From NCBI GenBank assembly GCA_964291655.2, contig OZ219801.1, positions 576,001-640,000 on the forward strand: a DNA stretch of 64,000 nucleotides. Direction: 5' to 3'. Of this stretch, positions 16,747 through 30,974 are shown piece after piece. The position numbers were made by a program, and so were the translations under genes. Within the stretch, counting starts at the first letter, position 1, and each line of letters begins with the position of its first letter. The notes beneath the pieces were generated by a model. It worked only from the letters and a program-made list of their open reading frames with translations. It searched no databases and had not been told where the DNA came from. The DNA is from Chloroflexota bacterium. Its GTDB lineage: Bacteria; Chloroflexota; UBA11872; VXOZ01.

Positions 16747-17622
16747 CTATCGCGCGTTAATGAAAACAATGGCAAACATGCCGAGAACGATGCCGGTGGC
16801 CGTGAGTCGTCCAAACCGCTCGCCAAAGAGCACCATGCCACCAATTAAAGTCGTTGCCAAGCCCACGGTTGCCGCCAGCGGAAACACGATCGTGCCGGGG
16901 AGGACCTCCAGCGCGCGGAGCAGCATGGCAATCTGAAAGAGGTTGGCTGCACCCATCAATACACCTAAGCCGATGTTGTGCCGCAGCGAAGCGGTCCTCC
17001 ATTCCGGCAAGCGGAAACGCTTGCGCAAGGGCCACACAAACGCGGCGCCCAAGGTTGCGGTCACGAACACGGAAGCGGTGTAGAGCGGTTGATACTCCGG
17101 TGTGCTCCACACGGCAAATGCTTTTGCCGCGGTAAATCCCACCCCGGAAAGAACTAGCACCACCAGCAACACACTCCACGTCCGCAGCGAGTGCCCGCGT
17201 CCGTTGCGCGCCGCCTGGTGCGCATCCGCACCCAACAGCGGCAAAGCTACGAACGCGAGCGCGAGACCGACCACTTGGAGCGCGGCCGGCTGCTCCCCCC
17301 ACAAAAAGACCGACGCCAGCGTTGGCAACGCGATTGAAAGACGAATGATGCCAAACGTAACACCAATACCGACGAGCTCTACTACCGTAAACAGCACCGC
17401 CAGGCTGATCTGGTATTGGAGTCCGTTGATAGCTCCCAAGACAATTACGCGCACGTCCAGGTCGGGAATACCGTTCAGCACCGCCCAGGTGACAGCCAAC
17501 AGGGCCGCTACCGCATAGTTGATAGTTCCTACGGTCAAATAGTGGTACTGCTTGCCCCGCGCCAGGCGCAGTGACATGGCAAACACAAAGTTGCCGAAGA
17601 CTTGACCGGCAATGAATATCAT
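16747..17622 (-). CDS. EamA/DMT family transporter
   Basis: About 10 TM helices in two repeats (FLWGE...LFGERF). ATGA overlap with the upstream oxidoreductase. Confidence 0.85.
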   Translation of the reverse strand: MIFIAGQVFGNFVFAMSLRLARGKQYHYLTVGTINYAVAALLAVTWAVLNGIPDLDVRVIVLGAINGLQYQISLAVLFTVVELVGIGVTFGIIRLSIALPTLASVFLWGEQPAALQVVGLALAFVALPLLGADAHQAARNGRGHSLRTWSVLLVVLVLSGVGFTAAKAFAVWSTPEYQPLYTASVFVTATLGAAFVWPLRKRFRLPEWRTASLRHNIGLGVLMGAANLFQIAMLLRALEVLPGTIVFPLAATVGLATTLIGGMVLFGERFGRLTATGIVLGMFAIVFINAR

Positions 17623-18662
17623 GCCGGCCTGAAGTGCGCAGGTTGAACCGGCATACCGGTCTGCCAAGATTCAATCGCGGCAAGCGCCACCGCGACCGTG
17701 TTGGCTCCCTCCCACACGTTGGTGAGGGGAGTTTCGTTCTTGACCACACACTGGTACACGTGATCGACCACGGCGGCAATGGGTTTTCCGCCTGGGGGTT
17801 GAAACGGCACAACCCATGCTTCTTCATCAAACGCGTGATTTGCTGATGAGACAAACTGTTTGTCGCGGTCCTGCTGCCCTCGCGCGCGCTCGATCGTGCC
17901 GTCGGTACCGAAGAGCACCAGGTTGTGCATTGTCTCCCGCACCAGGCCGTATGAGGTAGTGCACTTCCCTACGGCGCCGTTTACAAAGTGCAGATTGGCA
18001 ATCATACAGTCCGGGAAGGGAAAGTCCGGCAGAGCACGTCCCGCTGCCTCGCAATGGACTCGGTCTACGTCACCGACGAGCCAGCGCAGCATATCGAGAG
18101 AATGCGAGCCACCGCCAAGTATGGGGTAGTGCGAGTGTTCGGCGGAACCGCGCCAAACTGTCCGCTCGCGAATGAGCCGGGCAGTGTTGTGAAGGTAATC
18201 GGCCTCGGCATAGTAGATGTCCCCCAACCCCCCACCGACAAGGTGTTCCTTGATTGACTGGTAGTAGGGATAGAACCGCAAGACCTGATCAACTGCCAGC
18301 AGCTTCCCAGATTCCTCCACCGCCCGAATCATTGCCTCGCACTCCTGGAGCGAAATGCACATCGGCTTCTCCACAATGACGTGCTTGCCGGCGTGCAGAG
18401 CCTGCACCGCCATGGAGGCATGAAGCGCGTGGGGTGTCGCAATTACCAAGAGCTCAATGTCCGGGTCGGCCACAATCTCGGCGAAGTCCGTGTAGCAGCG
18501 CACATTTGCATGCTCTTGACTGACCGCCGCAAGCACGTCTCGCTCCTTACCGCAAATGGCGGTGACCGTCGCGTGGGGATGCGCGGCGAACGCTTCAACG
18601 AATCTCCGGCCTACTCCGAGTCCAACAACACCCACGCGCAAGCTGGGGAAATGCGATTTCAT
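17619..18662 (-). CDS. Gfo/Idh/MocA family oxidoreductase
   Basis: VGVVGLGVG, ATPHALH, VEKP and GGSHSLD. Start MKSHF after a GAGG RBS. Confidence 0.92.
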   Translation of the reverse strand: MKSHFPSLRVGVVGLGVGRRFVEAFAAHPHATVTAICGKERDVLAAVSQEHANVRCYTDFAEIVADPDIELLVIATPHALHASMAVQALHAGKHVIVEKPMCISLQECEAMIRAVEESGKLLAVDQVLRFYPYYQSIKEHLVGGGLGDIYYAEADYLHNTARLIRERTVWRGSAEHSHYPILGGGSHSLDMLRWLVGDVDRVHCEAAGRALPDFPFPDCMIANLHFVNGAVGKCTTSYGLVRETMHNLVLFGTDGTIERARGQQDRDKQFVSSANHAFDEEAWVVPFQPPGGKPIAAVVDHVYQCVVKNETPLTNVWEGANTVAVALAAIESWQTGMPVQPAHFRPA

Positions 18663-20876: not shown

Positions 20877-22055
20877 ATGAGCGCCGTCGATGCCAGCCGC
20901 ATACAAGCAACCGCAGACCTCCTTTCCGCCCTCGTCAGCATTCCGAGCATGAATCCGGCCTTTATGGCCGATGGCTCCGGCGGCGAGAGTGGGCTTGCCG
21001 ACTTCGTGGAGTCCCAGCTACAGGACCTCGGCATGGAGACTCAGCAACACGAAGTGCTGCCGGGGCGGTCTAACGTCTTCGGCCGGCTGCGCGTGCCCAA
21101 CTCCAAGGGTCTGTTGCTCTTCGAGTGCCACATGGACACGGTCGGCGTAGATACATGGGGGCCGGAAGCCTTGGAGCCACGGGTGGACGGGACTACGCTG
21201 CACGGGCGGGGCTCCTGCGATGCCAAGGGCTGCCTGGCCGGCATGATACTGGCCATCCGCGAACTGGCAAAGCACCCGGAAGACCTTGACTATGACATTG
21301 GGTTGCTCGGCGTCGTTGATGAAGAATACCGCTTTCGCGGCATCGTCGGCTTCATAGAGCAAGGGATTGAAGTAACGGCAGCGGTGATTGGCGAACCAAC
21401 AAGGCTTGAGCTGGTGACCGCCACGAAAGGCGCGGTGCGCTTCACGCTGCAAACCAAGGGCAGGCCCGCCCATAGCAGCCAGCCTGAACGGGGCAATAAC
21501 GCGATCTACCAGATGGTCGACGTTATTCACCACTTGCGCGAAACGCTGGACCCGCGCTTCGCGGCGCGCTCACATGCGCTGGTAGGGTATCCCACCTGGG
21601 CCATCGGCATCATCCACGGCGGCCACGCGGCAAATGTCATTCCGGAGACCTGCGAGGTGGTGGTGGACCGCCGCATCATTCCAGGTGAGACTTCGGAGGG
21701 GTCAATCCGGGAATTCGAAGAGGCCATGGAGCAACTCGCGGCAACCAAGCCGGACCTGCATCCCAGTGTCGCTTCGCGCGACCTCGCCGATTGGCCGCTG
21801 GATACCGCGGAAGATGAGGCAATCGTGCAAGCCGCCATGCGCGCACTGCGGGCGCACAACCTCCCACCGGAGCCGCAGGGCGTGACCTACGGCACGGACG
21901 CCAGCAAGCTGCAAGTCAAGAGCGGCGTGCCCTGCATCGTCTATGGCCCCGGCGACATTGGCTACGCCCACACCGACCACGAGCGCGTCGACCTCACCGA
22001 AGTCGTCCAAAGCGCCGACGTCTACGCCCAAATCGCCCGCGAGTTCAAGCCCTAG
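20877..22055 (+). CDS. M20 family metallopeptidase/deacylase (ArgE/DapE-like)
   Basis: CHMDTV, GRGSCDAKG, DEE, GEPT, GRPAHSS, TDAS and AHTDHE. Confidence 0.92.
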   Translation: MSAVDASRIQATADLLSALVSIPSMNPAFMADGSGGESGLADFVESQLQDLGMETQQHEVLPGRSNVFGRLRVPNSKGLLLFECHMDTVGVDTWGPEALEPRVDGTTLHGRGSCDAKGCLAGMILAIRELAKHPEDLDYDIGLLGVVDEEYRFRGIVGFIEQGIEVTAAVIGEPTRLELVTATKGAVRFTLQTKGRPAHSSQPERGNNAIYQMVDVIHHLRETLDPRFAARSHALVGYPTWAIGIIHGGHAANVIPETCEVVVDRRIIPGETSEGSIREFEEAMEQLAATKPDLHPSVASRDLADWPLDTAEDEAIVQAAMRALRAHNLPPEPQGVTYGTDASKLQVKSGVPCIVYGPGDIGYAHTDHERVDLTEVVQSADVYAQIAREFKP

Positions 22056-22194
22056 TGTTCCTTCGCGCAAGAGGAATGTGTCAGTCGTACCTGGAACGCT
22101 TCCAGCTAGCAATGGTGCAGTTTTCCGTCATTTGTATGTTGAATAAGGTCAGGAAATGAGCGCATAAAAACGGTTACGCAAGGTCGCGTCGTCC

Positions 22195-22220
22195 GTCATC
22201 CCCGCGAAATCGGGAATCCA
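22195..22220. repeat. REP-like palindrome between convergent genes
   Basis: gtcatccccgcgaaatcgggaatcca, same family as 20630-20655. Confidence 0.6.
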
Positions 22221-22283
22221 TCTTCTGAACCACCGCGCTGCAAGCTAGCAGCAAGACAATCTATTAGAATCGCACACTAAGCC

Positions 22284-23597
22284 TCACGTCTCCAAACTCT
22301 CGGAGAGCACGGAGCAGGCTTGGTTGACCGCGGAAGTCACCTCATCGCCGCGCACGAGCGCCTCCACTATGTTCCTCATCGCGCGAGATTGCCCCACATC
22401 TGACGGCAGTGCTCGCCCATGCTCCATCGAATGCTGTATAGCCACGACTTCATCGGGTTGGATAGTCGATCGGTTATCTAGGAGCCGCGCCACGGCTTCT
22501 CTCTCTGTTGGTACGTTGACGTACGGTTCCATTGTATGCAACAGTCCTCTCAACGCAGTGTATGCTGCCTCGGGATTGGAAGTTTTTGCGACAATCGCAA
22601 TACCTGCATACGATTCGACCGGAACACTTAGCACTTTGCCCCGGGCCAGTTCTGCCCGGCGATAATTGTCGCTGGGCGACCCGAAAGGGATAGTGTCGTA
22701 TACCATCGCCGGAGGCGACCCCGCCGAAGGGTGAATGAGATTCAATAGATCAGCACCGCTAGCCGGTGGAGATACGTGGTGTAAATGTATCAGATCGCGA
22801 AAAAACTCAAGCGCTTCGATAGCAACCGGTTCCTGCAATCGACACTGCGACGAAATCGCGTCAATCATCTCCGCTTGATTCTGCCAAAGGGCCCACCAGA
22901 TGGTCCAATTGTGCGTTGCCAATCCCCAACGCGATATTGTGCCTCCCTCTCCTCGCTCTGTTAGCTTGAGCGCTTTGTCGACCAAGTCATTCCAGTCCCA
23001 AGTACCATCTGGTGGCGGGATTCCCAACTTCGCAAAGTAATCAACATCGTAGAAGAGCATCAGAGGGAACGAGTCCGTCGGTAGGGCGTAAAGCGCACCA
23101 CTCTCTCGAAACACATCCAGGACGGGCGAATAGAATTCCCGTTCAAAGTCTGAGCTATCTGCACCGCCGAACTGGTCCAGGGGCAGTAGTACACCCATTT
23201 CCCCTAACACGCGCGCCTCATCATGCCATACTGTCACGAGGTCGGCGCCAATTTCTCCCAGCCACGCCGCCAAATGCTCCGATTTGCGGTACAGTTCTGC
23301 ATCAGGATCTGAATAGGACCCAGCATAGTGCTCGTAGTATTCCAGTGCGAGACTGTACCGGCCTCCCGCCGGGCCATACTGGCTTCCATCATAGTCTGCC
23401 AATTCTTGCTCTATCCGACGGAGCTTTTCCTCAAAAGACTCATTACCGGACCCAGTGTTGAGACCTGTAATTGGGCGGGAGAGCCAGGTCAATGGAACCG
23501 GACGTGGCGCGCCTAGGAGTGGCAGAGAAAAATCCAGACCGCCACAGCCAGCCGCGAGAACAGCAGCGCTACCAATAATCGCTCGGCGAGTTAGCAT
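22284..23597 (-). CDS. Extracellular solute-binding lipoprotein (family 1), Tat-type signal
   Basis: MLTRRAIIG...LAAGC lipobox; LLPLD, LYALP...LFYD.DYF, PDGTWDWNDL..A.KLT. AGGAGG RBS. Confidence 0.88.
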   Translation of the reverse strand: MLTRRAIIGSAAVLAAGCGGLDFSLPLLGAPRPVPLTWLSRPITGLNTGSGNESFEEKLRRIEQELADYDGSQYGPAGGRYSLALEYYEHYAGSYSDPDAELYRKSEHLAAWLGEIGADLVTVWHDEARVLGEMGVLLPLDQFGGADSSDFEREFYSPVLDVFRESGALYALPTDSFPLMLFYDVDYFAKLGIPPPDGTWDWNDLVDKALKLTERGEGGTISRWGLATHNWTIWWALWQNQAEMIDAISSQCRLQEPVAIEALEFFRDLIHLHHVSPPASGADLLNLIHPSAGSPPAMVYDTIPFGSPSDNYRRAELARGKVLSVPVESYAGIAIVAKTSNPEAAYTALRGLLHTMEPYVNVPTEREAVARLLDNRSTIQPDEVVAIQHSMEHGRALPSDVGQSRAMRNIVEALVRGDEVTSAVNQACSVLSESLET

Positions 23598-23619
23598 GGC
23601 GGTCCTCCTTCGCCGGCCT

Positions 23620-24906
23620 TCAGGCTTGCTGGTACTCACGGGCGACGGCACAGGCCTCGTTGACCACACTAGCCACTTCATCGCCATGTACGATGCCCTG
23701 GAGCGCTGAGTCCATCGCGAACAGCGCCGGCACGCTCCGTGGCCAAGCGCGTCCATGTTCCATGGACCGCTGTATTGCTAGGACATCTTCGGGGTGAAGG
23801 TCCGACCGAGTTTCTTCCAGCCGGGCTATGGGATCTCTCTTGGCAGGGACCACCACATGCTCCTGCAAGGCGTCGACAAGTCCCTTAAGGGCAGTATACG
23901 CCGCTTGAGGGTTCTCAGTTCGCGCGACAATGCCAATCCCCATGTCACCATACACGGGAACGCTGTGCACTTTGCCCCGCGGCAACTCGGCTAGGTGATA
24001 GTGTCCCGGCGGGCGTATAGGAGGACTGCTATACACTATGGCCGGCGCGAATCTTGCCGGCTCGAATACAAGCTTCGCTAGGTCCATGTACAGGGCCGCA
24101 GGTGAGACACGATGCGTGTGCAGCAAGCTGTGCGCGAACTGCAGGGATGTGATAGCGGCCGGTTCCTGCAGCCGACACTGCAACGTCACGGGATCTACGG
24201 CCTCCGCCTCGTTCTGCCATAGTGCCCACCAGAGTTGGCTACCGTGCGCCGCCAATCCCCAGCGCGTTACTGAACCGTCTTCCCTGCGCTTGGTCAGCCT
24301 TAGCGCGCTCTCCACCAGATCACTCCAGTCCCAATTACCGTCTACCGGCGGTGAGACCTCCTCCAACGCGAAGTAATCGGCGTCGTAGTAGAGCATCAGC
24401 GGACGGGCGTCCACCGGCAGCGCGTAGAGCTCTCCCTGCCGAAATTGCTCCACCACGCTGGGGTAGAAGGCCTGTTCTAGGGCGGCGCCATCGGTTGCAA
24501 TGAACTGGTCTAATGGCAGCAACACGCCCTCTTCCCCGAGCGCCCGCGCACCTTCCGGTGACACATTCACAAGATCTGCCTCTAGGTCGTGCAGCCAGTC
24601 AACGAACGTCTCCTCGCCTAACTCCGATGTCTTTTCCACGTGCCGCAGCGTAAGATGATACTTGCCGCGCTTCTGGCCATTAGAGTTCCCATTGTCTTCC
24701 TCCAGCGTTGTCACCGCCTTTTGAAGTTTTTCCACAGGTCGCAGTCCATTCCCCGTGAGATCGCTAAGGCCAAGATGGTTCCCAAGAGAGATCCAGGTTA
24801 GCTCGGCCCCTTGCGGTGCGCTTGGCGCGGAAAAGAAAGACCCAAGAGGGCCACAACCGGCTGCGAGCACCGCCGCGCTGGCGATCACTGTTCGTCGTGA
24901 AAGCAT
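23620..24906 (-). CDS. Extracellular solute-binding lipoprotein (family 1), paralogue of the downstream gene
   Basis: MLSRRTVIA...LAAGC. Shares motifs with the neighbour (WWALWQN.AE, QCRLQEP, ELxRGKVxSVPV, SMEHGRA). Confidence 0.88.
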   Translation of the reverse strand: MLSRRTVIASAAVLAAGCGPLGSFFSAPSAPQGAELTWISLGNHLGLSDLTGNGLRPVEKLQKAVTTLEEDNGNSNGQKRGKYHLTLRHVEKTSELGEETFVDWLHDLEADLVNVSPEGARALGEEGVLLPLDQFIATDGAALEQAFYPSVVEQFRQGELYALPVDARPLMLYYDADYFALEEVSPPVDGNWDWSDLVESALRLTKRREDGSVTRWGLAAHGSQLWWALWQNEAEAVDPVTLQCRLQEPAAITSLQFAHSLLHTHRVSPAALYMDLAKLVFEPARFAPAIVYSSPPIRPPGHYHLAELPRGKVHSVPVYGDMGIGIVARTENPQAAYTALKGLVDALQEHVVVPAKRDPIARLEETRSDLHPEDVLAIQRSMEHGRAWPRSVPALFAMDSALQGIVHGDEVASVVNEACAVAREYQQA

Positions 24907-25075
24907 TGTCTCGCTCCTTTTATGCCTATGACAAACGAGTCTTGCCACTTTGGCCTAGAAGTGCCCATTATGCCTGAATAATCAGAGCGCCCGCACAAAG
25001 CCTTCGCAACTTCCGCGCAGGCGCTCCAATCCTACCTAAACCTGAGGTCATGCGGATATGCCCGGCGTACTTAAA

Positions 25076-25417
25076 CTACGCACTTGGGCACGGTCTGTTT
25101 GGGATTATGCAACCGCAACCTCCGTAGTAAGTCTTCGTCGGGCAAGTCTTCCCGGTATAGCAGTTCTCGCCCTCTACCCTCTTAACATACGGCCTCTTGC
25201 TAGAGTGGCAACGCTCGCCGCAGGAGCCGCAGAATGTGGTGGTGTTAGTTACACAGAAATGGCTCCCGTCGCAATGATCAGCATAGGCCGCTCTAGTGAA
25301 CAACACAGAGAGTACGGCAGCACCACCAACGGCACCAGCAACTCTCCCCAGAAAGCCGCGGCGATTCATGCTAGCTTTCGCCAGGCTCTCGCTCGCTTGC
25401 GCAATCAACTTATCCAT
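25076..25417 (-). CDS. Tat-exported small Cys-rich protein (MauA-position precursor; 46-aa leader plus 67-aa mature part with 10 Cys and no Trp)
   Basis: GGAGG RBS before MDKLIAQ; NRRGFLG twin-arginine motif, hydrophobic core and AYA cleavage site. Lies directly downstream of mauD/mauE homologues. Confidence 0.85.
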   Translation of the reverse strand: MDKLIAQASESLAKASMNRRGFLGRVAGAVGGAAVLSVLFTRAAYADHCDGSHFCVTNTTTFCGSCGERCHSSKRPYVKRVEGENCYTGKTCPTKTYYGGCGCIIPNRPCPSA

Positions 25418-25517
25418 GGGTTTACCTCCCATGTGTTGCCTGCATTGCGTCTTGAGATGCGACTCATGCGCGGGGCGTCGTCACGCTGCGGTGTGAGCAC
25501 GCACAGGTAGACGGACG

Positions 25518-26090
25518 TTACCCGCTCACACTCTTTGGCGAACTGCCGGTCGTCGCATCTTTAGCGAGCAGCTCGCCTAGCACATGCACATCATTCACCA
25601 CCCCCTTTTCGGCTACATTTCCTTCCACATCCACGACAAAGCCGAACGGCGTCCAGCTACTGCCGTAGAGGTCGGCAATCTCATGCTCCTGCTGGATGAC
25701 CAGCGGCCACGAGAGCTTGAATTCATCCACCATCTCTTGGTTCTGCTCCCGGCTGCCGCCGCTCACGAGCATCAAAATCACATCTTGCGCTTCAATACGA
25801 TCCGCTTCTCCGTTTAGGCTTGCGAAAAGCTCTTTGCAGGGCGGGCAGGTGGGATGGACGAAGAGCACCAGCAGGCGCTCGCCGATCATGGTCTCCAGGT
25901 CTACAGTCCCATTGAGACCCTCGCCCTGGAAGAGCGGCGCTTGGCTGCCGACGGCAAGTCCCATGTCAGGCTCTTCCCCGACCCGCAATCTCAGTTCGCC
26001 GATTTGCCGCATGAGGCCGATGACGATGAAGGCAAGCAGGCCGATAAAGACCCACTGCAGGAGGTACGATGCGAGCCAGATGCCTTCCAT
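25518..26090 (-). CDS. mauD: MauD-like membrane-anchored thioredoxin/TlpA-family protein
   Basis: N-terminal TM ending LMRQIGEL, G..VG..AP.F, FVHPTCPPCKEL (CxxC) and TPFGFVVD.EG.V..KG.VN. This pattern is typical of MauD. Confidence 0.82.
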   Translation of the reverse strand: MEGIWLASYLLQWVFIGLLAFIVIGLMRQIGELRLRVGEEPDMGLAVGSQAPLFQGEGLNGTVDLETMIGERLLVLFVHPTCPPCKELFASLNGEADRIEAQDVILMLVSGGSREQNQEMVDEFKLSWPLVIQQEHEIADLYGSSWTPFGFVVDVEGNVAEKGVVNDVHVLGELLAKDATTGSSPKSVSG

Positions 26091-26161
26091 GTCTGTCGCC
26101 TCCGGTCTAGGTCCACTTTGGTTGAGACTCTAATGCGCCCTACTTGCCAATCCAGTGAAGA

Positions 26162-26189
26162 TGGATTCCCGCTATCGCGGGAGTGACGG
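26162..26189. repeat. REP-like palindrome between mauE and mauD
   Basis: tggattcccgctatcgcgggagtgacgg, the reverse-orientation member of the 20630 family. Confidence 0.6.
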
Positions 26190-26201
26190 ACCCCACTACC
26201 C

Positions 26202-26738
26202 CTAACGTGACTGAGAAATCGTGCGCAGTCGCAGGAACTCGGCGACTACGAGAGCTACAGCCCAAGCGCCTACCGTGAATACGACAACCCCAGCGAGGCC
26301 ACGCAAATTGCCGTCCAATTCTTCTGAAAGCAACGGTATTGGTCTGGCCGTAAGTACCAACAGCCCGAGCAATACAAGAACTGCAACTTGCTTGAAAATT
26401 GTGGCCTTGCCCAGGGGTTGGCCCCCCGCTCCGAAGCAGTAGCAATCAATACCGCCCCGCCCTTGCGTGAGAGCGAGCGATGAAACCGCGAGAAAGAGCG
26501 AGACGAGGCCGATTCCCAGCCAGACCCCCCACATCACCGCCATGCCAGTGATGAGCAGGGAGCCACAGAGGAGTTCTAACAAAGGAATTGCGCCGCTCAG
26601 GTATGGAAGCGCGCGAGGAGGCACGACGCCAAATCCGTGCACCGCAGCCTCAAATTCAGCAAGGTGCAGTAGCTTGGCGGCGGGCAGAAATACACCGCCC
26701 ACGAACAGTTGGAGCCTGAGTATGCCACCCTGTACCAT
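26202..26738 (-). CDS. mauE: MauE/DoxX family membrane protein
   Basis: AAGGAG RBS; VFL..AKL, F...V.GF.VVP, IPLLEL..G.LL and GIDCYCFG (MauE CxCFG motif); 4-5 TM helices. Confidence 0.82.
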   Translation of the reverse strand: MVQGGILRLQLFVGGVFLPAAKLLHLAEFEAAVHGFGVVPPRALPYLSGAIPLLELLCGSLLITGMAVMWGVWLGIGLVSLFLAVSSLALTQGRGGIDCYCFGAGGQPLGKATIFKQVAVLVLLGLLVLTARPIPLLSEELDGNLRGLAGVVVFTVGAWAVALVVAEFLRLRTISQSR

Positions 26739-27001
26739 TGGGCCGCTCCTTCCGCTCCGCGAAGGGCCGACGACATACCTGCCTTGTACTATCGTATTGA
26801 GGGACATCCATATCAATACTAGCATATCATTGTTAGGCTGTATGTCAACCTTACAAATGATAGAACTAAACCGGTCTTATTGAGTATTACAAAACTACAC
26901 TTGCGGTACAGGGCATGTATCGAGAATAGACTTGCGGGGCCGGAGCCGTGCAAGGGGAGGGGACAGATACCGAGCTCAAGTCTTGAGTCTCGCCCGGTGG
27001 C

Positions 27002-27763
27002 CTACGAGTCAAGCTGGGGTGGGGGGAGAAGTTGCTGGATGTGCGCCATGGCGGCGTCGACGTGGCGCTTGCCGTCTTGCAAGCTGAAGCTCACGTGGCC
27101 GGGGAAGAACTGCGTGAATTCCAGTTTGGCAAAGCGCTTTACGGTGGCGATGGATTCCTCTAGCGAGCAATCCCAGATGTTCTGGAGTAGGATGCGCCCG
27201 CCGAAGAAGAGGGCGTCGCCGCAAAAGAGAGCGCGGTTCAGGCCGTCTCCGGGGCTCGCGCCGTCATCTACTAAGAACGCCAGATGGCCCTGGCTATGCC
27301 CATCGGCCTTCACGACCGTCACAGCGAGGGAACCCAAACGAATAACGTCTCCATCGGAGGCATCGGTCGCGGACGCCACCGGCCGCAAGCGGTTTTCTAC
27401 CGGATACATACCGGTCTGACGCGCGGCCACCAGGCTCGCGGCCTCTTCATCACCCGTCTCAAGCCATCCTGCCACGTCGTGGGAAGCGACAATCTCGGCG
27501 CCACACAGTTGCTGCAATTCCGCCGCGCCGCCGGCATGATCGAGGTGCAGATGCGTGATGAAAATCTTTGAAATGTCGCTGGGACCAAAACCTGCCGCCT
27601 CTATCTGGTCCACAATCGCCGGCACGTCTCTGCCCACGCCGGTGTCAATGAGTGCCAGCTCCGTACCGCCGTCCAACAGATACACATGGCAATCCAACGG
27701 GTGGGTAAGGCTGAATCCGTTCTGGCCGCTACCAACGAGATGAACGGTATCCGTGAGCTGCAT
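27002..27763 (-). CDS. MBL-fold metallo-hydrolase
   Basis: LIDTG, THLHLDHAGG (HxHxDH), GHSQGH, CGDA and PGH. Confidence 0.92.
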   Translation of the reverse strand: MQLTDTVHLVGSGQNGFSLTHPLDCHVYLLDGGTELALIDTGVGRDVPAIVDQIEAAGFGPSDISKIFITHLHLDHAGGAAELQQLCGAEIVASHDVAGWLETGDEEAASLVAARQTGMYPVENRLRPVASATDASDGDVIRLGSLAVTVVKADGHSQGHLAFLVDDGASPGDGLNRALFCGDALFFGGRILLQNIWDCSLEESIATVKRFAKLEFTQFFPGHVSFSLQDGKRHVDAAMAHIQQLLPPPQLDS

Positions 27764-28154: not shown

Positions 28155-28664
28155 TCAGCGGCGAATGAGACGAAAGAGCACGTAGCAGAGACCGATGACG
28201 AGACCGCAGATCGCCGCGCCGCGGGTATCGAGAAGCGTGTTGACGTTGCCATTCACGCGACCGCCGACCACCACCACGCTGGCCACCTGCTCAGCTTCGA
28301 TCTGCCCGCCGACGATCCACTGCGACACGGAGTAGTTCGTATCCACGCTGCCGCCAACCACCAACCACGTCGCCCCTTCGGTCACGCTCACTTCATGGCC
28401 GGCTGCGATCCCAGTCAGCCCTTGCTGCAGCGACGCAGCCTCCGCCTGCACGACGCCGGTAGCCGTGTTCTGCATGTCGATATCATCGGCGACCACGTGC
28501 CGCACGAGGCTGTTCGTGATTTGAAACCGTTCATCAACTTCCGGTGCGTTTCCGGCAGCCTGTTGATCGCCGTCACTCATTGCTTCTTGAGAAGCGTCTT
28601 CCGAAACGTCATTGCCTGCCGGCGCCTGTTCCGGCCGCACCTCAGAAGACCCCATATTCGGCAC
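28155..28664 (-). CDS. Hypothetical protein with 15-aa repeats and a C-terminal TM anchor
   Basis: AAGGGG RBS; acidic N-terminus; about six 15-residue Val/Gly-rich repeats; hydrophobic tail ending FRLIRR. Confidence 0.7.
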   Translation of the reverse strand: MPNMGSSEVRPEQAPAGNDVSEDASQEAMSDGDQQAAGNAPEVDERFQITNSLVRHVVADDIDMQNTATGVVQAEAASLQQGLTGIAAGHEVSVTEGATWLVVGGSVDTNYSVSQWIVGGQIEAEQVASVVVVGGRVNGNVNTLLDTRGAAICGLVIGLCYVLFRLIRR

Positions 28665-28769: not shown

Positions 28770-29936
28770 CTACTGTCCCGCTGTCCGCACAAAGTCCATT
28801 ACCTCTTTTACCGGCACCTGTGCCGCCGTAGCGACCCGCAGGCAGTCCTCGTACTCGGGACTACGATTCACAACCTTGCCGCGCCAATGCGCCACTTTGC
28901 GGCGCACCGTGCCCCACGGCGTATCCACGTGCTCTACCTGCCGTTCAAGCTTGATCCGCTCGACCCGATGCAGCCGCACGCCAATCGTCGTAGTCTCTCG
29001 AAAGACTATGTCCAGGAGAGGCGCATGGTCTGCGGCCTCCGTTAGCACGCTGAGCACGTGCCCGGGCCGTCCTTTCTTCATTTGGACCGGGGTCAGCGTC
29101 ACATCCAGCGCGCCGGCTGCAAACAAGAGCGCGGCAACATGTCCATACAACTGCGGATTCATATCGTCGATGGTGGTCTCGATCACAGTCGCCATGCCAG
29201 TAGCGTTACCAGCAGACTCCTCCCCGATGATGAGGCGCAAGACGTTGGGAATATCAGTGTCGCGCATACCCGCGCCGTAGCCAATGCGGTCCACCTGCAT
29301 TGTTGGTATGGGGCCGAATGCGTCCGCTAACTCGCTGAGCACGAGCGCCCCGGTGGGAGTGAGCGTCTCGCCCATGTCCGGTATGGCATAGATTGGCTTC
29401 TCCTTCATGAGATCCAGCGTCGCCGGACCCGGAATCGGCCACCAGCCGTGACGGGTCTGAATAGGGGGGCTGCCGCCGACGTTCACCGGCGAGCAAACAA
29501 CGCGCTCAACGCCGAGCGCCTTCAGTCCCGCGACCACACCAACTACGTCGAGTATAGAGTCCACCGCGCCGACTTCATGAAAATGCACGGCCTCCGGCGC
29601 AACCCCGTGCATACGGCCCTCTACTTCTGCTAACCGGACAAAGAGCCTCTCGCTCGTAGCAACAACGTCGTCTTCCAGATTACTCGTTTTGAGCAGTTGC
29701 ACGATATCGCCGAGATTACGTTCTACCTTGTGCTCGTGTGCATCGATGTCGATGTGAACTTGCAGGGCACGGAGCAAACCCTTGCGCACCTCTTCCGCCC
29801 GAACTTCGTAGCCGCCGAGCGGGATCTTGGCAAAGGTCGCCTTGAGGTCCTCCAGCGCCCACCCGCCATCTACCAGAGCGCCAAGCATCATATCGCCCGA
29901 GGCGCCGGCAAAGCAGTCGAAATAGGCTATTCGCAT
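28770..29936 (-). CDS. larC: Nickel pincer cofactor biosynthesis protein LarC
   Basis: YFDCFAGASGDMMLGAL, HFHEVGAVDSI, PATL, TPTG, ETTIDD, MKKGRPG, ETTTIGVR and PEYED. Confidence 0.96.
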   Translation of the reverse strand: MRIAYFDCFAGASGDMMLGALVDGGWALEDLKATFAKIPLGGYEVRAEEVRKGLLRALQVHIDIDAHEHKVERNLGDIVQLLKTSNLEDDVVATSERLFVRLAEVEGRMHGVAPEAVHFHEVGAVDSILDVVGVVAGLKALGVERVVCSPVNVGGSPPIQTRHGWWPIPGPATLDLMKEKPIYAIPDMGETLTPTGALVLSELADAFGPIPTMQVDRIGYGAGMRDTDIPNVLRLIIGEESAGNATGMATVIETTIDDMNPQLYGHVAALLFAAGALDVTLTPVQMKKGRPGHVLSVLTEAADHAPLLDIVFRETTTIGVRLHRVERIKLERQVEHVDTPWGTVRRKVAHWRGKVVNRSPEYEDCLRVATAAQVPVKEVMDFVRTAGQ

Positions 29937-30709
29937 GACGAATCCTGGACGCTGTCTGCTTCCGTCATGCGGCAGATCATACCGGCCATATATCCTGCGC
30001 CAAAGCCATTATCGATATTCACGACAGCGAGCCCGGCCGCACAGCTATTGAGCATGGTGAGGAGCGGCGTCAGTCCACCGAGCGAGGCCCCGTACCCCAC
30101 ACTCGTCGGCACGGCAATGACGGGTCGATCGATCAGACCGGCAAGCACGCTTGGCAGCGCGCCCTCCATGCCTGCCACGGCGACCACGGCACGGGCCTGC
30201 TGCACAGTTTCGAGGTTGAGCAAGAGCCGGTGCAGCCCGGCCACACCCACATCTGTCAATCGATCAACTCGGCACCCCATCAGCTCCGCCGTTAAGCTGG
30301 CTTCAGCAGCTACCGGCAGGTCGGCCGTGCCTGCAGCGACTACTGCTACCCGTCCCTCTGCCAGGCGCTGCATTTCGCGGCGGACGACGATGGCGCGGGC
30401 GTCTTCATGGTACACGGCAGCCGGAATCCGCGCGTTCACGTCCGCAAAGAGTTGCGGTGTTGCGCGTGTGGCCAGGACGGTTTGATCATGGGCGAGCAAC
30501 TCCTCGGCAATGCCGATGACTTGTGCCGATGTCTTACCCGGACAGTAGATAACCTCCGGGAAGCCAACCCGCAGTTGGCGTTGCGCGTCTACCTTGGCGA
30601 ATCCCAAGTCCTCGTAGGGAGCCAACCGTATCCGGCGTACCACCTGCTCTATGTCTACGGTCCCACGTTGCAAGTCCGTGAGCAGCGTGCGTAATGTGTT
30701 TGTGTCCAT
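29927..30709 (-). CDS. larB: Nickel pincer cofactor biosynthesis protein LarB
   Basis: AKVD..R.LRVGFPEVIYCPGKT, AGTADLPVA.EA, DVGVAGLHR, AGMEGAL, PTSVGYG and VVNIDNGFGA. Confidence 0.96.
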   Translation of the reverse strand: MDTNTLRTLLTDLQRGTVDIEQVVRRIRLAPYEDLGFAKVDAQRQLRVGFPEVIYCPGKTSAQVIGIAEELLAHDQTVLATRATPQLFADVNARIPAAVYHEDARAIVVRREMQRLAEGRVAVVAAGTADLPVAAEASLTAELMGCRVDRLTDVGVAGLHRLLLNLETVQQARAVVAVAGMEGALPSVLAGLIDRPVIAVPTSVGYGASLGGLTPLLTMLNSCAAGLAVVNIDNGFGAGYMAGMICRMTEADSVQDSSCE

Positions 30710-30974
30710 CAGGGGAACACCAGACTCCAATGCGTTCAATCACTTTTCCAAGCAACAATGTGGCGATACTTGCGTCACTCGCCGCAACGACTATTGTAGC
30801 GCAGGCCGTCTTGTGCCAGAGGCGCAACACATCTACAGAGCAATTGCCCAAGCGGGCAAGCAAAGTTCGGGAACAGCAGATGCGAGTTAGTATCCAGCTC
30901 CCTGGCTGGACACCCCAAGGTCACATACCGGCTTGAGCACAGCCGCGATCACAGCACTCTTCGGTCGTGCAGGT

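Follow-up and report, generated by a model that had tools for sequence, protein, structure and literature searches.

What does a MauE-MauD gene pair serve in a bacterium whose genome shows no methylamine dehydrogenase (MADH)? The question is raised by a locus in a 64,000-nt stretch of DNA from a Chloroflexota bacterium (contig OZ219801.1, positions 576,001 to 640,000), here called the window; the genome comprises 3.47 Mb in 2 contigs and is 97.55% complete. As an earlier note on this DNA had described, three co-oriented genes lie on the minus strand of the window at 25076-26738, encoding a MauE-like membrane protein with the motif CYCFG, a MauD-like protein with CPPC, and a 113-aa precursor with a signal for twin-arginine translocation (Tat). 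Together with two genes for lipoproteins of the solute-binding protein (SBP) fold, SBP1 and SBP2, they constitute an accessory island of five genes. The explanation which we favour, and consider likely, is that this island is specific to the genus and carries a private oxidative-folding pair together with its client. Two elements, the core of the client peptide and the immediately downstream gene for an SBP-fold lipoprotein, make up the variable unit of the locus. It has been swapped by recombination at a conserved segment, spanning the 3'-end of mauD and the leader, and has been duplicated into arrays.

The MauE-MauD pair and its small client

The MauE gene is located at 26202-26738 on the minus strand (the open reading frame, ORF, is open to 26825, with M30 at 26738 as the likely start). 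Its product matches Pfam family PF07291 with 65.4 bits against a cut-off of 27, and with 66.8 bits in the genome-wide search. For comparison we used six mau clusters, one of them being mauR-F-B-E-D-A-amicyanin-J-G from Paracoccus denitrificans. The window protein is 26% identical to P. denitrificans MauE; the CXC and the conserved Lys and Glu of the first helices are aligned, and CYCFG, a CXC followed by Phe-Gly, stands opposite DCGCF. Among ten related MauE loci inspected, nine have CYCFG and one has CYCLG. The MauD-like gene (25518-26090, minus strand) directly follows mauE, and its product possesses the N-terminal membrane anchor and the thioredoxin fold with a CxxC that mark a MauD. This protein matches AhpC-TSA (54.8 bits) and Redoxin; its best NCBIfam match is TIGR02661, MauD (62.3 bits, residues 6-180 of 190). 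The alignment to P. denitrificans MauD is colinear over the full length, with 28% identity (E 2e-17) and CPPC opposite CPVC. By these alignments, both proteins are true but distant homologues of P. denitrificans MauE and MauD, and MauE is probably a quinone-linked disulfide generator. Two side observations concern this gene pair. In locus L014 (2082-3237) MauE and MauD are separated by about 1.1 kb, compared to about 110-200 bp in the other loci, and the window holds a second MauE/DoxX-like match at 16753-16953 (minus strand, inside the ORF 16747-17667), which with 18.7 bits lies under the Pfam cut-off.

The earlier note had pointed out that mauB and mauG are missing from the window. This absence holds for the entire genome and extends to MauA: a whole-genome search returned no light chain MauA (PF02975), no heavy chain MauB (PF06433) and no MauG (PF03150), amicyanin not being part of this search. 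There is also no VKOR in the genome, and a separate DsbB homologue (50.5 bits) is encoded elsewhere. Hence, the window MauE and MauD are an extra disulfide system and not the sole one. The lack of MauA, MauB and MauG and the presence of a separate DsbB support the view that the pair serves something other than MADH. Furthermore, the mature part of the precursor, which the note had proposed to compare with the MADH light chain, has no match to PF02975 at E<=1, reaches only E 7.7 in a BLASTP comparison with P. denitrificans MauA and an hhalign probability of 0.19% against six MauA sequences, and no chain of MADH came up at E<=10 when the PDB was searched by profile. The MADH light chain and the mature domain are unrelated.

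Counted from its first ATG, the precursor ORF (25076-25432, minus strand) has 118 codons. All 32 aligned homologues start at MDKL, and a GGGAGG is located 7 nt upstream of the ATG at 25417; therefore, the precursor is 113 aa long. Its first 46 residues (25280-25417) form an extended Tat leader, consisting of a conserved stretch of 17 residues, then NRRGFLG, and a predicted cleavage site after AYA. The Tat signal is recognized by TIGR01409 (17.5 bits, cut-off 16.7), and the genome encodes a TatC (211.6 bits). In 33 precursor sequences RRGF.G is invariant, as are many other columns of the leader. When the peptide family and six MauA precursors were compared as profiles, it was only the leaders that matched, start to start and with the twin arginines in register (hhalign probability 92.3%, E 5.4e-7, score 45, columns 4-44 against 5-44). 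Control comparisons of either family with the Tat-lipoprotein signals of SBPs gave probabilities of 0.4% and 0.9%. A hidden Markov model of the MauA leaders placed the window ORF first among the 38,722 ORFs of the genome, with E 0.0047, followed by the next match at E 0.15. On this evidence the leader is MauA-like and the cargo unrelated to the MADH light chain, which lends support to the earlier idea that the small gene occupies the slot of MauA.

The mature mini-protein (25076-25279, including the stop codon) comprises 67 aa, among which are 10 Cys and 3 His but not a single Trp; our recount agrees with the note. Throughout the family the leader is almost invariant, and the mature part is hypervariable around invariant Cys residues. 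Six Cys are invariant and a seventh nearly so in the alignment of 33 sequences, eight are invariant in a second alignment of 20 loci, and one further pair varies with the subtype; 32 of the 33 members have 8 or 10 Cys. Trp is present in 22 of 33 relatives, yet there is no conserved Trp column. Twenty sequences share an unvaried His-Cys...Gly motif at the N-terminus, but its His is not invariant in the wider set, and the mature parts contain between 1 and 9 His. Their net charge lies between -9 and +5 (median -2), i.e., most are acidic, unlike a cationic defensin-type peptide. This weakens the defensin-like effector which had been among the suggested functions.

The coding sequence is under constraint. 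In six of seven pairs with a computable value the dN/dS ratio (omega) of the mature part is 0.09-0.34, pointing to purifying selection within subtypes; the very recent pair formed by the window and locus L003 has an omega of 0.99, which results from only 7 changes. Positive selection on the peptide core was not found in any of these seven pairs. A word-indexed search yielded 36 precursor relatives at E<=0.01 among 48 candidates. Together with the low dN/dS, these homologues make the precursor more than a chance ORF. AlphaFold2, run on the alignment of mature parts, gave a confident model (predicted local distance difference test, pLDDT, of 90.6; predicted template modelling score, pTM, of 0.70) with three strands of about 10 residues. 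The mature part has no Pfam match at E<=1 and no sequence match in the PDB, and a protein-atlas search with it returned no usable match. In Foldseek searches against the PDB neither the full precursor nor the mature part gave anything at E<=0.001, and for the mature part nothing was below E 0.45. The top match, the bacteriocin laterosporulin10 (PDB 6lwz; E 0.45, probability 0.41, TM 0.34/0.39), is not significant. It shares with the mini-protein that it is a small, disulfide-rich secreted bacterial protein built of beta-sheet, and it is a lead at most. The structure prediction and fold search called for in the note thus describe, at the level of a model, a confidently predicted disulfide-rich scaffold lacking a structural match in the PDB.

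Co-inheritance and cassette exchange

An exhaustive profile search of 1.84 billion representative sequences found 15 precursor relatives at E<=0.001. All 16 loci that could be recovered from species genomes come from entries labelled as metagenome-assembled genomes of Chloroflexota or Chloroflexi. Among 81 genomes of the class, the precursor family occurs in 12 of the 17 from the genus of the window, with 0-8 copies each, and in none of the 64 from other genera. The folding pair follows this distribution closely: of the 12 peptide-positive congeners, 11 have MauD or a remnant of it and 10 have a MauE of this type, and both are missing from all five peptide-negative ones, where the MauD query matched only other thioredoxin-fold genes with 23-28% identity. 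Where a genome has more than one peptide locus, the MauE-MauD pair is also present in several copies. According to the coordinates, a peptide gene lies about 90-115 bp downstream of every one of the 14 full-length copies of MauD. One departure from the usual layout was noticed in locus L010 (5511-5906), at the syntenic site of one congener, where there is no MauE and the MauD has lost residues 1 to 58, i.e., the membrane anchor; peptide and SBP are intact there.

The island extends from 22056 to 27001, between an M20 peptidase gene (20877-22055, plus strand) and a gene for a hydrolase of the metallo-beta-lactamase (MBL) fold (27002-27763, minus strand). Four of the five peptide-less congeners (G001, G008, G013 and G016) show an empty site, at which the MBL and M20 genes abut at a distance of about 150-215 bp and the MauE, MauD, peptide and SBP genes are all absent. 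The other flanking genes of G008 are 98-99% identical to those of the window at the protein level. Because the flanking genes abut at the empty sites and those of such a close relative are otherwise nearly identical, the block 22056-27001 represents a recent gain or loss. Its borders fall into intergenic DNA just beyond the stop codons of both flanking genes; in a three-way alignment inspected by eye no direct repeats or scars were evident at them, and the base composition of the region is unremarkable. The comparison with the empty sites identified no other enzyme genes gained or lost with the island. The island thus has no modifying enzyme beyond the disulfide pair, and the earlier description as a system resembling peptides that are made on ribosomes and modified after translation (RiPPs) does not apply in the strict sense.

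Both lipoprotein genes lie on the minus strand. SBP1 (23620-24906; Pfam SBP_bac_1, E 1.5e-14), a Tat-lipoprotein with an MLSRR...AAGC lipobox, is located directly 3' of the peptide gene and is its proposed cognate partner. The paralogous Tat-lipoprotein SBP2 (22284-23597; E 3.2e-18) is encoded by the last gene of the island. Members of this family share an invariant RR...GC lipobox and two further invariant Cys. The earlier note did not mention the SBP-fold lipoprotein, which always follows the peptide and is exchanged together with it. In all 16 related loci of 16, the next gene after the matched peptide gene is one for an SBP, and the gap between the two is 100-203 bp in 20 of 21 measured pairs. 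A scan restricted to promoter and terminator consensus sequences found no terminator-like site between the peptide and SBP1 genes. In total, the loci hold 24 SBP genes adjacent to peptide genes and 14 additional ones. A complex prediction for SBP1 (residues 19-428) and the mature peptide gave scores of 0.00 and 0.00, which weigh neither way on binding.

At the syntenic site of different species the flanking genes and MauD have about 80-90% protein identity, and peptide and SBP go down to about 50%. Between the window and L003 the relation is inverted: from the start of the peptide to the end of SBP1 (about 25400-23600) the DNA is 95-99% identical, whereas outside this unit identity is about 80% in MauD, 65% in MauE, 70% in SBP2 and 80% in the MBL gene (flanks 65-82%). 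Since the flanks are so much less similar, peptide and SBP1, and exactly these two, have been exchanged recently as one 1.8-kb cassette. The distances between peptide cores are strongly correlated with those between the adjacent SBPs (Mantel r 0.80 for 21 pairs, a value reached in 0 of 5000 permutations).

The place of recombination is visible in the DNA. All peptide copies share a conserved segment (25343-25617, minus strand, in the window) which begins with the final ~40 codons of mauD, continues through the intergenic region and its ribosome binding site and includes codons 1 to 25 of the leader. Over 22 copies, identity from -200 to +75 around the ATG is mostly 0.8-0.9 (0.61-0.92 in bins of 15 nt) and drops to 0.55-0.62 past +107. 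Leader and core can differ in their history, as shown by the pair L006/L008 with a dS of 0.02 in the core against 0.58 in the leader. Further peptide-SBP units stand in series at L005, L014 and L015/L007, each after a fragment of the mauD 3'-end, and in L005, L014 and L015 tblastn located such fragments (residues ~150-189) ahead of the orphan copies of the peptide gene. Four structural features of polymorphic effector/immunity cassette loci were found here: a constant segment, a variable cassette, recombination breakpoints and orphan cassettes bearing a stub of the constant part. One peptide copy within the array of L005 (2472-2774) is a pseudogene, broken after codon 18 at the same place where the copy of genome G004 has an in-frame TGA.

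The subfamily of these SBPs is larger than the island. Beside the two island genes, this genome has five more full-length copies (at C2:2528914-2533163, C2:1140767-1142137 and C2:1718498-1719865), of which three are arranged in tandem. Neither in the island nor beside the three other loci with these five SBP copies was a gene for an ABC permease or ATPase seen, ORFs being judged by reading and only in part by Pfam. In a tree of 43 SBP sequences, selected with a motif that left out several free copies, the SBPs of peptide loci form a clade apart from the free copies of this genome, and one SBP of the peptide-less genome G011 nests inside it.

With regard to the neighbourhood, the conserved flank of the island includes genes for LarC (Ni_insertion, 449.6 bits) and a LarB-like protein (AIRC) at 28770-30739, with 83-91% protein identity in congeners. 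A 169-aa ORF at 28155-28664, which has no Pfam or NCBIfam match, keeps a constant position between LarC and the MBL hydrolase and is 83-99% identical in congeners.

Loci in other genera and known systems

The note had predicted that a family of such systems should exist, with a conserved kind of leader and variable Cys-rich cores. MauE was detected in 61 of 201 sampled Chloroflexota genomes (including the unpublished G198, which was not used otherwise). For other genera, 26 MauE loci with 1.5 kb of flanking sequence each were surveyed, and the Cys-rich ORFs of L041 and L050 were dropped by eye as spurious frames. Four of these 26 loci, in G081, G023, G124 and G208, have the same order of MauE, a MauD-like gene and a Cys-rich ORF. 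The latter encode 118-145 aa with 8-18 Cys and unrelated cores behind a long leader with a twin-arginine-type motif (RR; RK in G081). A fifth locus (L074, G246:C8, 3212-7192) is a fused variant, in which TatC and a 527-aa MauE-thioredoxin-thioredoxin fusion are accompanied by three tandem Cys-rich ORFs with long Tat leaders; thus, the prediction of a wider family is supported. Two of these three copies are complete, with 100 aa and 12 Cys each, and one copy weakly matches I2 conotoxins (E 5.7e-4, sub-threshold). In G124 (L071, G124:C42, 1740-6542) MauE, the MauD-like gene and an ORF of 118 aa with 8 Cys and a Tat leader precede the genes for a MacB/FtsX permease and an ABC ATPase, an arrangement characteristic of peptide-export or immunity loci. 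In neither G023 nor G124 does the Cys-rich ORF have a gene of SBP size right behind it; of these downstream genes, only two were run through Pfam.

The closest known arrangement is mauB-E-D-A on plasmid 1 of P. denitrificans PD1222, where MauE and MauD are likewise followed by a small disulfide-rich client with a long Tat-type leader. The likeness includes the homologous pair itself, with CXC and CxxC aligned at the identities given above, and the match of the leaders by profile. In contrast to P. denitrificans, the window genome has no MauB, no MauG and no MauA domain, and its mature client has half the size of MauA, an unrelated sequence and no conserved Trp. Moreover, the client gene is followed by amicyanin, MauJ and MauG in P. 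denitrificans and by the SBP-fold lipoproteins in the window.

Two reports come close to parts of this picture. Among the decRiPPter candidates (PMC7794033), three candidate RiPP families from Streptomyces have mauE, one of them also mauD, beside precursors with at least 8 Cys. As in our locus, MauE/MauD occur there beside a small precursor rich in Cys, the remaining mau genes being absent, and the authors suggest that the pair modifies the precursor. Those candidates stem from another phylum and are, as far as the accessible text goes, computational predictions only; the same text reports no Tat/MauA-type leader, SBP partner, cassette arrays or presence/absence evidence. According to the accessible part of a recent preprint (bioRxiv 10.64898/2026.03.05.709764), MauE from two phyla can replace DsbB, its active site is a CXC usually followed by F-G, and MauA is found in only 10.2% of MauE-bearing species. 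The window protein resembles this generalist MauE in its CXC plus F-G (CYCFG), in the aligned Lys and Glu, in having the thioredoxin-fold partner that would be expected and in occurring without MauA. The role described there is one of housekeeping, whereas the window pair is accessory, is co-inherited with one client family and exists alongside DsbB. The bearing on the earlier claim that MauDE was redeployed as a dedicated folding module is twofold. The dedication is supported by the genus-wide co-occurrence and the peptide gene behind every full-length MauD. An origin by redeployment from MADH is not supported; MauE is reported in that preprint as a generalist DsbB analogue and MauA in only about 10% of the MauE-bearing species.

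What is already in print, to judge from the accessible text of these two sources, is therefore MauE as a general DsbB analogue and, as a prediction, MauE/MauD beside Cys-rich precursors. Searches of the literature on MauE in combination with Chloroflexota, bacteriocins or such leaders gave nothing relevant beyond them. As far as these searches reach, no publication describes the link between the leaders, the strict co-occurrence or the arrays of peptide-SBP cassettes.

In polymorphic toxin and bacteriocin loci such as those for contact-dependent inhibition (CDI) or Rhs proteins, the variable ends can be swapped, immunity genes lie downstream and orphan cassettes occur. Our locus shares with them the constant 5' segment, the variable cassette, a tightly linked downstream gene, orphan stubs and a copy number varying among strains. 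It differs in that its constant part is a leader together with the end of a folding-enzyme gene, rather than part of a large toxin, in that its orphans are complete genes and in that the downstream gene encodes a 430-aa SBP-fold lipoprotein.

Competing explanations and their meaning

How the favoured explanation, a private folding pair with its client, could work is suggested by homology and by the comparative data. MauE with its CYC-FG would make disulfides and hand them to the membrane-anchored, MauD-like thioredoxin with CPPC, which would oxidize or shuffle the 8-10 Cys of the small exported protein. The extended MauA-type leader would send this protein through Tat and may also direct it to the MauDE pathway. 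Signal peptidase would then release a three-stranded mini-protein of 59-69 residues with 4-5 disulfides. With less certainty, the mini-protein and the adjacent SBP lipoprotein may be a cognate binding pair at the surface, in the sense of effector and immunity or of ligand and receptor. A bolder version of this explanation depicts a polymorphic secreted-factor system, in which MauE/MauD recognizes MauA-type leaders and matures a hypervariable mini-protein of new fold that is paired specifically with the adjacent SBP (effector/immunity or self/non-self), strains swap and stack the cassettes and the leader acts across phyla as an address label of MauDE clients; this we put forward tentatively.

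Several observations weigh against the favoured explanation or its extensions. The MauD-like protein remains below the equivalog cut-off of TIGR02661 (62.3 against 188.6 bits). When the MauA profile was restricted to the stretch before the twin arginines, the peptide was not singled out in the genome and the top matches had E >=1.6; hence, the similarity rests on the leader as a whole. Two of the ten inspected MauE copies (L017, 4585-5154, and L013, 4596-5159) are each interrupted by a single premature stop in frame, with MauD and the peptide gene beside them intact; this is either decay or assembly error. The genomes G009 and G010 have a peptide gene without intact MauD or MauE, and at L018 there is no MauD/MauE within 6 kb of the peptide gene. 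Dependence on MauDE is thus not absolute, or else these copies are decaying. As to the partnership with the SBPs, their subfamily also occurs without the peptide, with 7 full-length copies in this genome (5 of them beyond the island) and 2-12 in each peptide-less congener, and the nearest solved relatives are oligosaccharide-binding proteins (e.g., 6rjy, E 8.7e-20). The SBPs may therefore be ordinary sugar binders which stand beside the peptide through linkage only, and the joint exchange could be a mechanical result of where homology lies.

In a more specific version of the favoured explanation, the mini-protein is a bacteriocin-like antagonistic effector which the adjacent SBP, as its immunity protein, sequesters at the cell surface, the extra SBPs being orphan immunity genes. 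This is possible, and several features argue for it: the constant region followed by a variable cassette with breakpoints in the leader, the stub of the constant region on orphan cassettes, the 14 SBP genes in excess of the 24 adjacent to peptide genes, an SBP of the peptide-associated clade in a peptide-less congener, the copy number of 0 to 8 per genome, the MacB/FtsX-type ABC exporter behind the Cys-rich ORF of G124 and laterosporulin10 as the top, though insignificant, Foldseek match. The mostly acidic mature parts (median net charge -2), the absence of positive selection in the dN/dS analysis and of a significant fold match speak against it, and a 430-aa SBP of the sugar-binding type would be an unusual immunity protein. 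That the SBPs are passengers and the mini-protein acts alone, for instance as an inhibitor or adhesin toward a host or other organisms, on an island that arose inside an expanding SBP array, seems doubtful. It would agree with the multi-copy SBP subfamily found also without the peptide, with the oligosaccharide binders as nearest solved relatives, with the loci of G023 and G124 and with the expectation that recombination between the sole conserved segments moves core and SBP together whatever their function. However, the SBP follows the peptide in 16 of 16 loci at a narrow range of distances, orphan duplications always hold both genes, the SBPs vanish with the island at empty sites and those of peptide loci form a clade of their own. 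Still unlikely, in our estimation, is a secreted ligand or scavenger, i.e., a signal or a carrier of metal or glycan, caught by its cognate SBP, with the extra SBPs using the variants of neighbours. The constant adjacency and co-variation of peptide and SBP, the SBP family being one of ligand receptors, the His-Cys...Gly motif invariant in 20 sequences and the 1-9 His of mostly acidic mature parts would fit; the N-terminal His varies in the wider set, island and free SBP copies have no adjoining ABC permease, ATPase or sensor kinase, and a folded, disulfide-locked protein of 7 kDa would be an unusual substrate for ABC import.

The two remaining alternatives concern the folding pair and the origin of its client. 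MauE/MauD might be the general disulfide system of the organism, the peptide being merely one nearby substrate, as MauE can replace DsbB and is widespread without MauA (10.64898/2026.03.05.709764, accessible part), and the SBPs with their two invariant Cys each could also be clients. The DsbB homologue elsewhere in the genome, five congeners which live without this MauE/MauD, the parallel multiplication of peptide loci and MauE-MauD copies and the peptide gene adjoining every full-length MauD make this very improbable. Finally, the ORF could be a decayed or highly diverged MADH light chain, as its position after mauD as in mauBEDA and its MauA-like leader would have it. Against this stand the negative results with PF02975, BLASTP, hhalign and the PDB profile search, the lack of a conserved Trp column and of MauB and MauG, and the purifying selection that keeps a different, confidently modelled fold; such an origin is exceedingly improbable.

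What follows for the biology of these bacteria is that genes of this kind would be annotated under methylamine utilisation, a pathway which the genome cannot perform. With its strict co-occurrence, the empty sites in close relatives and a separate DsbB, the locus offers a clean natural case of MauE/MauD as a client-dedicated folding module and complements the claim of a generalist MauE. Since a MauA-like leader sits on unrelated cargo, our results suggest that it is the leader, rather than the cargo, which marks the clients of MauDE; if so, the odd leader of MauA itself would be explained. Because the mini-protein is exchanged between strains together with the neighbouring surface SBP, the locus looks like one for a variable secreted factor and not for methylamine metabolism, and the arrays that its cassettes form with SBP-fold lipoproteins hint that uncultured Chloroflexota may have a new system of interaction at the level of strains.

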